NCBI GenBank assembly: GCA_963675245.1
Contig: OY775910.1
Span: 576,001 to 640,000 of the forward strand
Direction of reading: 5' to 3'
DNA length: 64,000 nt
DNA from: Acholeplasmataceae bacterium
Lineage (GTDB): Bacteria > Bacillota_I > Bacilli_A > Acholeplasmatales > Acholeplasmataceae
Positions 57,340 through 61,540 of the stretch are shown piece after piece. A model generated the notes under the pieces. That model was given only the letters and a program-made list of their open reading frames with translations, made no database searches and was not told the origin of the DNA. Both the position numbers and the translations under genes were made by a program. Position 1 is the stretch's first letter. Every line of letters starts with the position of its first letter.

Positions 57340-58974
57340 TTATTTTTGATAACTGCTCTTTAGTGGCACAGTTTCATTAAACACAAGACTACCTTGTGTT
57401 GTATCATCGTCAGTTGTGAAATATCCAATTCTCATAAACTGATATTTATCTTGAATCTTTGTGTCTTTTAATGCTGCTTCAACAAACCCATGTTTAATTT
57501 CTAAAGAATCTTCATTAAATCGATCCATTAATTCGCTTGATTCATCTTCTGATAACATTGGTTGATAAATATTAAATTGAGCTGGTACCCCTTGGGTAGC
57601 CTCTACGAAATGGATAGTCCCATTAGGTTTACGCGCATCAAAGCCTGATCCACTTCTTGTTTCTGGATCGTAGGTTGCTAACACTTCGATAATGTCACCA
57701 TCGCTGTTATACTTAACATCGACAGCTTTGATAAAATAAGCATAAAATAATCTTACTTCGCCACCTAAATAAAGTCTTTTGAACTTTTTGTTAGGTTTTT
57801 CTAATGCGAAATCATCTTTTTCAATGTAAATATGTTTTGAAAATGGTATATCTCTACTGCCAAATTCTGGATGTTCTTTGTGATACTCTTCATTGAAATA
57901 TTCAATTTTTCCATCAGGGTAATTTGTAATAGTGACCTTTAACGGATTAATCACGGCCATCACTCTGTTAGCTTTATCTGATAAATCGTTTCTAACAGCT
58001 GCTTCAAGCATATCTGCGCCAACTGTAGAATTTACTTTTGATAGTCCTGTGGATAAAATAAATGTTTTAATGGCATCAGGTGTGTAACCGCGACGACGCA
58101 TACCTGATAACGTAGGCATTCTTGGATCATCCCAACCTTTGACCTTCCCTTGTTCCACAAGAGCACGTAAAAATCTTTTTGATAAAACTGTATTTTCGAT
58201 ATTTAATCTGCCAAACTCGATTTGTCTTGGTTGAGCAGGCATATCTGTTTCTCTTACGAACCAATCGTAAAGTGGTCTATGATCTTCAAATTCAAGTGAA
58301 CATAATGAGTGTGTAATGTATTCAACTGCATCTTCTAATGGATGTGCAAAATCATACATTGGGTAAATTACCCACTTGTTACCAGTTCTGTGGTGCTCAG
58401 CATGTACAATACGATAAACAACAGGATCTCTCATGTTCATGTTGGGTGAAGCCATATCAATCTTGGCACGTAAAACACATTCACCTTCAGCAAATTCACC
58501 ATTTTTCATTTTGTCGAATAATGCTAAATTTTCTTCAATGGATGTATCACGATAAGGTGAGTTCTGTCCCGGTGTTGTTACATCACCACGCGTATTAGAT
58601 ATCAATTCTGCTGATTGGAAATCAACATATGCTAATCCTTTTTTGATTAAAATGATGGCACGCTCATACATTTCTGTGAAATAGTCAGAAGCGAAAAGAA
58701 TATGTTTAGGATCATAACCCAACCATCTAATGTCTCTTTCGATTGATTTGACATACACATCATCTTCTTTTTCTGGATTTGTGTCATCATATCTCAAATT
58801 TGTATATCCACCAAAGTATTTTGCTAGTTCAAAATTAGTCACAACAGCTCGTGCATGACCAATATGTAAGAACCCATTGGGTTCTGGTGGAAAACGTGTT
58901 ATGATTTTGTCGTGTTTTTTAGATTCAAGATCATTTTCAATGATTGTCTTGATGAAATTTGATTGATTTTCCAT
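57340..58974 (-). CDS. glnS: Glutamine--tRNA ligase
   Basis: TRFPPEPNGFLHIGH, YPMYDFAH, THSLCSLEF, LSKR and GWDDPRMPT. Confidence 0.97.
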   Translation of the reverse strand: MENQSNFIKTIIENDLESKKHDKIITRFPPEPNGFLHIGHARAVVTNFELAKYFGGYTNLRYDDTNPEKEDDVYVKSIERDIRWLGYDPKHILFASDYFTEMYERAIILIKKGLAYVDFQSAELISNTRGDVTTPGQNSPYRDTSIEENLALFDKMKNGEFAEGECVLRAKIDMASPNMNMRDPVVYRIVHAEHHRTGNKWVIYPMYDFAHPLEDAVEYITHSLCSLEFEDHRPLYDWFVRETDMPAQPRQIEFGRLNIENTVLSKRFLRALVEQGKVKGWDDPRMPTLSGMRRRGYTPDAIKTFILSTGLSKVNSTVGADMLEAAVRNDLSDKANRVMAVINPLKVTITNYPDGKIEYFNEEYHKEHPEFGSRDIPFSKHIYIEKDDFALEKPNKKFKRLYLGGEVRLFYAYFIKAVDVKYNSDGDIIEVLATYDPETRSGSGFDARKPNGTIHFVEATQGVPAQFNIYQPMLSEDESSELMDRFNEDSLEIKHGFVEAALKDTKIQDKYQFMRIGYFTTDDDTTQGSLVFNETVPLKSSYQK

Positions 58975-59059
58975 AATAACATGTAAGATTTAAAGTGTAT
59001 TAAGTTAGTTACTTAAGTCTTTAAATCTTTACTCCTTTCGTTCTAATTTAATATACTAA

Positions 59060-59216
59060 TAATGTACTGTGGATCTGTGTCATATTTTTATAACCTAGAC
59101 TATTTTGAGGTGACGCTTACCACGGTCTTTATTTTAATCAGCAATAGTTAGTTAGCGGAAGACGCTTTTTACATGATTATGAGATAAAGACGCTGCTGGA
59201 CTTACCACACGTACAA
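59060..59216 (+). ncRNA. Putative IS110 bridge RNA (target- and donor-binding loops)
   Basis: Structured left-end region with segments matching the target flank (59104-59114) and both donor ends (59143-59150, 59169-59175); exact transcript ends unknown. Confidence 0.7.
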
Positions 59217-59239
59217 ATTTAATTCTTGGAGGTGTACTT

Positions 59240-60400
59240 ATGATCTATATCGGCATCGATATTTCAAAGTACAAGCATGACTGTTTCATCGCCACCGAAA
59301 CAGTTAGCCATCAGTTCTCATTTGAGAACAGTCAGTCTGGGTTTAAAGAACTATTAGGATACTTTAACTCTTTAGTCAAGCAAGAAATGATAATAGGCTT
59401 AGAGGCCACAGGTCATTATGGAGAAAACCTTAAGTCATTTCTTATCCTCCATGGATATTCATTCATGGAGATTAATCCTTTTCTCGTGAAGAAGTTTGGA
59501 GAAGCCCATTCACTGAGAAAAACAAAGACGGATAAGAAAGATGCACAAATGATTTCAACTTATATGAGATCTGTAGACTACAAAGCCTATCATCATCAAT
59601 CTTATCATATAAGTGCTTTAAAATCACTGACCAGGTTACGTTTTAAACTCATCTCAATTCGGACGAAACACTACAATATGATGACCAAGGTCTTAGATGT
59701 CATCTTTCCTGAATTCAAACCTTTTATGCAAGAACAAGGCTATAGTGATACATCTTTATACATCTTGAAGCGCTTTTCATCACCGGATAAAATAGCAAGG
59801 ATGACTGATGACCACTTCGATAAGCTTCGTAAACGATCGATGGGTAAATTCAATTATCCGAAGTTTGTTAAACTGAAGGAACTCGCAAAATCAACCATTG
59901 GTGTGACACAAGATCATCAACTATTCAAACTTAAGACTTCAATTTCTTATGTTGAGAAACTCAATCAAGATATCGAAGAAACTGAGAAACAGATCACTTC
60001 TTTAATGCATCGATATCCAACTAAGATTCAAACCATTAAAGGTATCGGAATCATTTCAGCAGCTGTCATCGTTTCAGAATATGGTGATATTTCACTTTTC
60101 TCCAATCCCGCTGAAATGTTATCCTATGCAGGTCTGGATTCAACCATCAGACAGTCTGGCACCATGTCTTCAACAGGTAAACTGGTTAAACGTGGCAGCA
60201 AGTACCTAAGAGCAACACTCATCAATATCTCAATGATGGTTATGATCTATAACCCCGTCTTCTACGACTACTACACCAAGAAGAAACAAGAGGGTAAACA
60301 TCATCGTGTCGCACTGGTTCATCTTTCAAAAAAACTCATTAGAGTCATTCATCATCTCGAAACACATCAGGAAGATTTTGATTCCTCTAAACTACAATAA
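59240..60400 (+). CDS. IS110 family transposase/recombinase
   Basis: DEDD RuvC-like GIDISK, GLEATG, KTDKKDA; C-terminal IKGIG, YAGL, QSG and KRGSKYLR. Confidence 0.96.
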   Translation: MIYIGIDISKYKHDCFIATETVSHQFSFENSQSGFKELLGYFNSLVKQEMIIGLEATGHYGENLKSFLILHGYSFMEINPFLVKKFGEAHSLRKTKTDKKDAQMISTYMRSVDYKAYHHQSYHISALKSLTRLRFKLISIRTKHYNMMTKVLDVIFPEFKPFMQEQGYSDTSLYILKRFSSPDKIARMTDDHFDKLRKRSMGKFNYPKFVKLKELAKSTIGVTQDHQLFKLKTSISYVEKLNQDIEETEKQITSLMHRYPTKIQTIKGIGIISAAVIVSEYGDISLFSNPAEMLSYAGLDSTIRQSGTMSSTGKLVKRGSKYLRATLINISMMVMIYNPVFYDYYTKKKQEGKHHRVALVHLSKKLIRVIHHLETHQEDFDSSKLQ

Positions 60401-60525
60401 TTGATTCCTTAAACTGTGGCGGTTAAGTCATAAAATCATCCAGTTATATGGCTAACCTCTAAAAATTATGGCTATTGGAGGTTTTTACAGTTTATCTACT
60501 AAAAGTACTTGACTTTTAATAGTTA

Positions 60526-60575
60526 GTCACCTCAAAGTTATTGTATCATATTTTCGTTTGAAATTATGTTGCTAT
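60526..60575 (-). promoter_or_regulatory. Displaced native SD and probable promoter of glnS
   Basis: Minus strand TAGCAA..N17-18..TATGAT, then GAGGTGA (60527-60533) with no start codon following except across the IS. Confidence 0.6.
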
Positions 60576-60604
60576 CATAAAGAAAAATACCCCGAAAGGA
60601 GTAT

Positions 60605-61540
60605 CTATTCTTCGTCGTTTATTTTAACATATTTTTTATTTTTAACAAACCGCTTTAGTGCAAAATCCACTGGATCAAGTCCCGTGTCTTTGACAATTCG
60701 TTCATAAAACATTTGTTTTTGTTCCGCCGTTCTATGCTCTAAATTCAGGATTGATTGAACTAAATGATGTTCAAATTGTTCTTGATCTCCTAAACGTTGA
60801 TGTGCTAATGCTTTGTAGTAGTGGAAATAGTCTAATAAGTAGTGCATATAATATGCTTCGCATTTTTCAATAGCGATGTTACACATTTCAACCACTTCTT
60901 CGTATTGCTCATTTCTTCCAAAGTTTTTAATCATCCAGAAATAAACGCGATATTCTGCAGTCACATTTCCACCCAAAGAGTGTCCCTTATCTCTCAAAAT
61001 ATCATACAATTTTTTTAGAATTGATTTCCTATCCTTATCGCTATATTCCATTAGAATTCCGAGCATGTATATTTCATCATCAGGGAAAGCTGATTTTTTC
61101 ATCACCCTTGGGTAATCAAGCATTTTATATATTTCGTTAATTAAATCTTCTTTTCTGATTCTTCCGGATTGTAAATCTAATATCAATTTAGAACTTCTAA
61201 ATAAATTCTCGTTAACTGTACTAATAAACACATGACTCTTCATCTTTTGATAATTTTCATACGCTTGAATGCCTTGATTAGAAGCAACCAAATTAAAAAA
61301 ACTTAAAGTGCTTTCGATTTCGTTAGCAAATTCATCGTCAAATTGATCAAGTAAACTAATAATCGAAATATTTAATTTTTCAGCAAATCTAGTAATTACT
61401 TCAAACGGGATTTCGCTTTCACCGCTACGATAGCGATAATATTGACGCTGTGATATAATACCGTCTAAGTAGTTCTCCTGGGAAATTTTTCGATCATATC
61501 TTAAATTTTCCATAAAATTTATTAATTTTAAGCTGTCCAT
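60605..61540 (-). CDS. Rgg/RRNPP-like transcriptional regulator (XRE HTH + TPR-like helical domain)
   Basis: N-terminal LRYDRKISQE...ISQRQYYRYRSGESEIPF HTH; all-helical C-terminus with TPR-like YFHYYKALAHQRLG. Confidence 0.75.
   Translation of the reverse strand: MDSLKLINFMENLRYDRKISQENYLDGIISQRQYYRYRSGESEIPFEVITRFAEKLNISIISLLDQFDDEFANEIESTLSFFNLVASNQGIQAYENYQKMKSHVFISTVNENLFRSSKLILDLQSGRIRKEDLINEIYKMLDYPRVMKKSAFPDDEIYMLGILMEYSDKDRKSILKKLYDILRDKGHSLGGNVTAEYRVYFWMIKNFGRNEQYEEVVEMCNIAIEKCEAYYMHYLLDYFHYYKALAHQRLGDQEQFEHHLVQSILNLEHRTAEQKQMFYERIVKDTGLDPVDFALKRFVKNKKYVKINDEE

Follow-up and report, generated by a model that had tools for sequence, protein, structure and literature searches.

The element at positions 58982–60527 (+ strand) of the window, by which we mean the whole 64-kb stretch of DNA analyzed, is an active-looking insertion sequence of the IS110 group. 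Its 5′ noncoding region probably encodes an IS621-type bridge RNA for the junction between the Shine–Dalgarno (SD) sequence and the start codon of host genes, and we put the probability of this reading at roughly 0.88. The initial annotation had already proposed an IS621-type bridge RNA with an SD sequence as its target guide. This proposal is supported by the 4/4 element copies in the genome itself, by an empty site in a close relative, and by covariation of guides and flanks over 59 loci.

The element proper is 1546 bp long, extending from TGTAAGAT to AATAGTTAGT, with ends determined from copy comparison and an empty site. The genome (1.63 Mb, one contig, 33.9% G+C) contains four copies with a mutual identity of 100%. 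At the left junction of all four, CAT and 5 nt are followed by CATGTAAG (the core plus the left end, CA-TGTAAG), and at the right junction AATAGTTAGT, ending in TTAGT, is followed by CACCTC. Insertion is site- and orientation-specific with a 2-nt core: CA lies on both sides in 4/4 copies, and a single CA is found at the empty glnS site of the closest relative, G006. In the window, the left copy of the core occupies 58980–58981 (+) and the right copy 60528–60529. A sister subgroup has CT, not CA, at both junctions. A first boundary model (CATG...TTAGT, bordered by GT on the right and by a dinucleotide from the target on the left) was dropped because the CT-core subgroup and the empty site show a duplicated CA core. 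The ends given in the initial annotation were off by 2 nt, and both the core dinucleotide and the handshake bases discussed below had been missed.

Related elements occur in Acholeplasmataceae and in other Mycoplasmatota and Bacillota genomes. Two of the copies are 5′-truncated: in L018 the left end is missing together with the first half of the target loop, and L020 carries tRNA-gene-like sequence in place of its left part. In contigs from four sequencing runs of the same organism (region 58300–61200; contigs only), there was no joint skipping the element and none uniting its ends. The depth of the element contig in these runs is about 3 times that of the flanks, which fits a collapsed repeat.

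The recombinase gene (59228–60400, + strand) comprises its own SD, GGAGGTG, and a coding sequence at 59240–60400 (386 aa). Two full-length Pfam domains were found, DEDD_Tnp_IS110 (PF01548, 4.9e-36) at residues 4–157, matching profile positions 1–155 of 155, and Transposase_20 (PF02371, 4.7e-22) at residues 262–345. Comparison with solved bridge recombinases gave E values of 7e-17 for ISCro4 and 1.2e-15 for IS621. Residues D7, E55, D98, D101, and S306 align with IS621 chain positions 13, 62, 104, 107, and 243. The catalytic residues of IS621, as listed in the available part of the published account, are D11, E60, D102, D105, and S241 (PMC11208158), and the aligned positions would be these same residues if the chain numbering is shifted by +2. 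With its DEDD RuvC-like and Tnp (Transposase_20) domains and the catalytic D, E, D, D, and Ser, the protein has the features that define the IS110 group. Downstream of the coding sequence, the motif ACTGTGG, which also forms part of the bridge RNA, recurs at 60413–60419 as part of AAACTGTGGCGGTTAAGT, a block conserved within the close family. After this block (60450–60490) there is a hairpin, AACCTC...GGAGGTT, with a T run, resembling a terminator of the recombinase gene.

The predicted bridge RNA (59064–59216, + strand, ends approximate) contains a target-binding and a donor-binding loop and maps between the left end and the recombinase gene. A covariance model was built on 59055–59222 from an alignment of 13 close relatives. 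It detected a homologous RNA upstream of the recombinase gene, on the same strand, in 80/80 related loci (77 at E ≤ 1.6e-6), 12 of which served to build the model and so match by construction. Among the remaining 68 loci, 64 have a recombinase that is only 47–52% identical. The noncoding RNA gene is therefore conserved together with the recombinase gene in all 80 loci. An Rfam scan of 58800–60700, at E values up to 10, returned chance-level matches only.

All strings cited in the initial annotation were found in place by a string check of the window, and the conservation of the stems formed by them could be compared in the 13 aligned sequences. Over four stems, 95.9% of the cells are paired and three pairs have changed on both sides. 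The proposed closing stem of the target loop, ACTGTGG (59066–59072) with CCACGGT (59120–59126), is 100% paired. The same is true of the inner hairpin of the donor loop, AGCG-GAAGA-CGCT (59154–59166; strands at 59154–59157 and 59163–59166), which had also been recognized and in which one pair has changed from G-C to A-U in 3/13 sequences. The strings of the proposed donor-loop closing stem, TCAGCA (59138–59143) and TGCTGG (59194–59199), are present as described, but the stem is weaker, with 86% of the cells paired and no covariation. The target loop has an inner hairpin, ATAA/CTAT (59090–59103), in which two of the four pairs show changes in both strands (C-G to U-A in 3/13); in the close-relative alignment it varies as A[C/U]AG / CU[G/A]U. 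A local stem previously suggested to compete for part of the guide, GTGTCA/TGACGC, is not conserved, since its central pair is broken in 8/13 sequences and no compensatory change is seen.

The 5′ strand of the target-loop stem (59064–59072) can alternatively pair with CCACACGTAC (59205–59214), which lies a short way upstream of the recombinase SD. In the 13 sequences this pairing is 99% formed, with one compensatory change. It may represent another fold or act as a closing stem, so the fold described above is provisional.

The right target guide, TTTGAGGTG (59104–59112, +), is the reverse complement of the core CA plus CCTCAAA. Its counterpart, the right copy of the core together with the right target (60528–60536), reads TTTGAGGTG on the minus strand and represents the native SD of glnS; the orthologous site in G006 is GAGGTG-TTATT-ATG. 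To quantify this relation in the family, the 9 nt preceding the 2-nt handshake position were compared with the reverse complement of core plus right flank, with shuffled flanks as the null and without L018, L046, L074, and L078, for which the call of the right end or core is doubtful. The identity was 0.775 versus 0.533 for the null (59 loci; z 14; 0/1000 shuffles), although this and the other shuffle tests overstate independence, as the loci are related and several have one shared RNA. The covariation of guide and target suggested as a check in the initial annotation is thus observed over these 59 loci, with flanks following the changes in the loop. Correlated changes from guide to flank include GGGGTG to CACCCC, GGAGTTG to CAACTCC, GGAGATG to CATCTCC, and AAGGTG to CACCTT. 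In CT-core loci, guides with GGAGG (GGAGG-C) or GAAAG go with CTCC or CTTTC flanks.

The extent of the right guide is shorter than first supposed. The initial annotation had assigned it 11 nt, and the exact complement is indeed present: TTTGAGGTGAC lies at 59104–59114 and its reverse complement at 60526–60536. This 11-mer and its complement occur twice in the 64-kb window versus 0.07 expected (0/100 shuffles reach 2). Moving outward from the core, the identity over the 59 loci is 1.0, 0.98, 0.97, 0.95, 0.88, 0.85, 0.54, 0.32, and 0.29. Because it drops from 0.85 at the sixth base to 0.54 at the seventh, about 6–7 nt of the guide (the core plus 4–5 nt), not 11, are constrained by the target as judged from these alignments. 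The last two bases of the 11-mer, AC, correspond to the handshake guide. At the four copies of its own genome, the right guide of the window matches 6–9 nt.

The left target guide, TCATATTTTT plus A (59080–59090, +), was placed by a permutation scan of registers, in which each group showed a single significant register. Loci with a left flank shorter than 14 nt were left out, as were seven whose left ends are doubtful or truncated. The guide contains CAU, the complement of the start codon, and in the family-wide register this CAU sits over CAT, the complement of the host start codon. In distant members it is replaced by UAU, for which pairing by a U.G wobble is still possible. The guide ends in UA, which reads the core CA through a U.G wobble and an A-T pair. 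The signal was clear in the two distant groups (z 4.8 and 4.5), with identities of 0.496 versus 0.392 in the distant CA-core group and 0.652 versus 0.545 in the CT-core group (0/500 shuffles each). It was weak in the close group of the window (0.548 versus 0.496; 12/500 shuffles; z 2.3). At one locus (L064) the left guide covers 13 positions with 11 identities and two wobbles. In the four copies of the genome itself, 7/8 cells at distances of 2 and 3 nt from the core are mismatches to the left guide. The left guide originally proposed, TTTTTATAA at 59085–59093, must be replaced: it overlaps the family register by five bases, and its remaining 3′ half, ATAA (59090–59093), is the 5′ strand of the covarying inner hairpin, whose partner is CTAT at 59100–59103.

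The target loop consequently has the IS621-type arrangement, in which the left guide corresponds to left target plus core and the right guide to the reverse complement of core plus right target. In the available part of its description, the left guide of IS621 reads the bottom strand and the right guide the top strand, with the core included in all four pairings (PMC11208160).

A corresponding arrangement is found in the donor loop. The left donor guide, AATAGTTAGT followed by UA reading the core (59143–59154, +), is identical over 10 nt to the right end of the element (60518–60527). This confirms the match noted previously, AATAGTTA at 59143–59150 and 60518–60525, and makes it longer. The 10-nt sequence occurs twice in the window versus 0.28 expected (3/100 shuffles). 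The guide is laid out like the left target guide, with A as the first base of the inner hairpin, and both left guides end in UA over the core. The right donor guide, TTACATG, is followed by the handshake bases AT (59169–59177, +). It is the reverse complement of the core CA plus TGTAA, so that 7 nt are complementary to core and left end, and the previously described pairing of TTACATG (59169–59175) with CATGTAA (58980–58986) holds. Donor ends vary little across the family, hence the weak covariation of the donor loop.

Handshake bases are located 3′ of both right guides, a concept and position taken from the available text on IS621 (PMC11208158). The handshake guide of the target loop, AC (59113–59114, +), is complementary to the terminal GT of the right end (60526–60527). 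Across the family, this dinucleotide complements the terminal dinucleotide of the right end in 58/59 loci (AC/GT 43 times, GC/GC 15 times). For the donor-loop handshake AT, 7/14 left flanks in the close group end in AT.

It could be argued that the 5′ region is a mere mRNA leader, with insertion at the SD–ATG interval achieved through protein–DNA recognition or through DNA opened by transcription or translation, the guide matches being incidental. The stability of the single-sequence fold, which is not above that of shuffled sequences (z −0.58), would agree with this. However, the differences between loops are tracked by the flanks on both sides of the core, the homologous two-loop RNA precedes the gene at each of the loci searched with the covariance model, and the recombinase shares homology with IS621 and ISCro4, which are RNA-guided enzymes. 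We therefore consider a mere leader improbable, and favor a bridge RNA that would be transcribed, bind the recombinase, and direct recombination.

The insertion sites themselves point in the same direction. All four own copies (4/4) separate GAGGTG from the ATG of an oppositely oriented gene; the occupied genes are glnS, a Pyr_redox_2 dehydrogenase, a GDSL lipase, and a 109-aa protein of no known family. A search of GlnRS orthologues in nine same-genus genomes yielded an unoccupied glnS site in G006, the closest of them, with 97.5% GlnRS identity in the 80 N-terminal residues. The sequence there is ...caataactgTGAGGTG-TTATT-ATGGAAAATC with one CA, and the window flanks joined at a single CA equal this site except for one SNP. 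Therefore, the SD is native host sequence and the core is CA. Native GAGGTG also precedes the orthologues of two further target genes, the lpd-like and GDSL genes, in G006. An orthologue of the fourth target gene (109 aa) was not found with the query used in G006, G005, or G002.

The same preference is seen across the family. Among 63 insertions with enough left flank, 52 have an ORF starting 4–14 nt from the core on the opposite strand (ORFs of at least 60 codons, or at least 20 if open to the locus end). In 42 of these the start lies at 4–6 nt, and 51 start with ATG. Seven more copies from two same-genus genomes all have such a start (7/7), which gives 59/70 insertions versus 507/5000 random genome positions; the other 11/70 have no ORF by the criterion used. 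Of 60 right flanks, 39 share at least 5 nt with the canonical SD string, as compared to 4.4% of random 10-mers. The enrichment of SD and ATG at the flanks, which the initial annotation had named as a check on its view that the element specializes in translation-initiation regions, is thus present, and that view is well supported by these counts.

The genome contains 37 GAGGTG-N5-ATG sites, four of which are the RBS of the element's own recombinase genes; the 33 host sites carry no element. The recombinase RBS, GGAGGTG-TACTT-ATG (59228–59242), itself fits the target motif, and its complement, TCATAAGTA+CA+CCTCC, matches the guides about equally to the glnS site. Self-insertion at this RBS looks possible from the match, and no nested copy was seen there in the loci examined.

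This placement, in one orientation between RBS and start codon in 4/4 own copies and 59/70 insertions family-wide, is reminiscent of IS900. Doran is said to have reported in 1997 that IS900 targets translation initiation signals and has a hed gene. IS901, IS902, and IS116, IS110-family elements of mycobacteria and Streptomyces, behave like IS900. In the available part of the published description, from which the likeness is drawn, IS900 inserts orientation-specifically between RBS and start codon, as does the present element, and lacks terminal inverted repeats, which may also hold here; the target motif of IS900 is CATG, six bases, TCTCCTT, and its hed ORF is encoded opposite the transposase, on the complementary strand (PMC8141618). 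Given the similar target geometry, the RBS/ATG junction might be targeted so that host translation signals express an antisense gene. We regard this as very unlikely here, since unlike IS900 the element has no long, hed-like antisense ORF (the longest minus-strand ORF, 51 aa at 59472–59627, is far from the right end), and reading from the host SD into the right end encounters no ATG, just ATT and 11 codons. A further difference from IS900 is the host, a low-GC Acholeplasmataceae genome rather than mycobacteria or Streptomyces.

The idea that the SD-like GTCACCTC is an outward RBS of the element, its match to 59104–59114 being element-internal (a terminal repeat or regulatory pairing), can draw on the presence of GTCACCTC behind all four genomic copies and on its first bases, GT, belonging to the element, but it is hardly tenable because the empty glnS site of G006 already has GAGGTG directly before TTATT-ATG, the 33 further host sites have the motif without an element, the flanks of same-RNA copies diverge 6–9 nt from the core, and the true right end is matched by a separate loop.

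Under the bridge-RNA reading, we propose the following course of events. The target loop would read the right target, which on the gene strand is the Shine–Dalgarno GAGGTG, and the donor loop would read the joined ends of the element itself, namely AATAGTTAGT, the core CA, and then TGTAA. Recombination is expected at the core CA, corresponding to the TG of GAGGTG when read on the gene strand. Consequently, the element would land one way round, antisense to the host gene, in the SD–ATG interval. The handshake dinucleotides AC and AT would read the opposite partner after strand exchange.

A circular form would unite a −35 hexamer in the right end, TTGACT (60509–60514, +), with a −10 hexamer in the left end, TAAGAT (58984–58989, +), and is predicted to create a promoter for both the RNA and the recombinase. 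The spacer on the circle is 17 nt, composed of 13 nt of right end, the 2-nt core, and TG. TTGACT is conserved in close loci and in the variant of G001, which has TTGACT-17-TATACT, the same geometry despite different end sequences. A promoter scan also gave TTTACT-18-TATACT, with an internal −10-like hexamer, TATACT (59052–59057, +), just upstream of the bridge RNA. This place holds TATAAT or TATACT in close loci and TATAAT in distant loci, and it may serve as a second, internal promoter. Between the left end and the internal −10 box, the C/U-rich TACTCCTTTC (59040–59049) is conserved in close and distant loci. It is complementary to GGAG-type SDs, and one may speculate that it could mask the recombinase RBS in long transcripts.

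The natural target of IS621 is a REP-type repeat, and that of the present element is the SD–start-codon junction. The two systems are otherwise similar in many respects. As far as the available parts of the reports on IS621 and ISCro4 go (Durrant 2024, PMC11208160; Hiraizumi 2024, PMC11208158), the shared features are DEDD RuvC-like and Tnp domains with a catalytic Ser, an RNA encoded between left end and gene, two internal loops with left and right guides around a hairpin, a 2-nt core within the pairings, and handshake dinucleotides 3′ of the right guides. The promoter geometry is also shared: the −35 box is part of the right end, as described for IS621 (PMC11208160), the −10 box is part of the left end, and the circle unites them. 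In contrast to these systems, the core is CA here (CT in the sister subgroup) instead of CT, the left guides read it as U.G plus A-T, and a second −10 box lies directly before the RNA. The protein identity is low (E about 1e-15), with 386 aa here versus 328 aa for the solved chain.

In IS1111 elements the RNA lies downstream of the gene; in the present element it lies upstream, so it does not have the IS1111 arrangement. Both systems combine a DEDD transposase with a short guide RNA for target selection; the available text on the IS1111 seekRNA also describes subterminal inverted repeats (Siddiquee 2024, PMC11187229).

Both the kind of system and the class of target are known, and the element extends existing knowledge without overturning it. 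RBS–ATG targeting is not new for the IS110 family, IS900 being in print (PMC8141618) and bridge RNAs having been known since 2024. Among searchable full texts, a scope outside which most subscription journals fall, we found no paper linking IS900-type RBS targeting to bridge-RNA guides, and the available portions of two IS110 preprints mention neither RBS nor start codons.

A particular case is glnS, which encodes glutaminyl-tRNA synthetase (57340–58974, − strand; Pfam tRNA-synt_1c, 3.9e-99). The ORF is intact. Its ATG (58972–58974) is separated from the core by 5 nt, and its SD is now 1.5 kb away from the ATG. GatB was not found in this 99.96%-complete genome by a search that was positive in 12/14 control genomes, and GlnRS is encoded by a single gene. 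Because of these two observations, glnS is probably essential here. In G009 (L089) this glnS site carries a related element, and in G007 (L090) it is empty. In the left end, a search for an outward promoter for glnS gave consensus-level matches only (11 versus 7.6 expected), and the sequence near the junction of left end and glnS contains no SD. A probably essential glnS thus appears to tolerate the loss of its adjacent SD.

Several features near these junctions may be mentioned. An extended −10-like sequence, TGATACAAT, lies directly upstream of the glnS SD. There is also a 311-aa ORF (60605–61540, −) without a Pfam match at 1e-3, behind which the sole terminator-like hairpin of the region is found. 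In the CT-core subgroup (L021–L084, e.g., L058 and L068), the base before the core is C in 18/22 left flanks. On the gene strand, the terminal G of the left end, the core AG, and the G opposite this base would rebuild GAGG before the host ATG, so that insertion may leave a minimal SD. No comparable rebuilding is seen in the CA-core group of the window.

Insertion of some IS110 elements between RBS and start codon has been in print since the 1990s, and these results account for it at the sequence level: one half of the target loop copies the SD, and the other is complementary to the start codon. The universal SD plus AUG signal would then be a landing pad in any host. The clade is also a natural data set of bridge-RNA guide drift, with GAGGTG, GGAGATG, GGAGTTG, GGGGTG, AGGAG, and GAAAG each matched by its guide. 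More tentatively, and at odds that we would place well below even, both target guides may have become fixed on the translation-initiation signal in a large IS110 clade of Mycoplasmatota and Bacillota, with insertion tolerated even at a probably essential gene and acting as a reversible translational switch. If this is true, the right guide would read the SD and the left guide the complement of AUG, giving dozens of landing sites per host. Hosts would either translate such genes without an adjacent SD or have their expression restored by the element, and scarless excision would make the switch reversible. For annotation, an element just upstream of a gene start in these genomes is not a random disruption.
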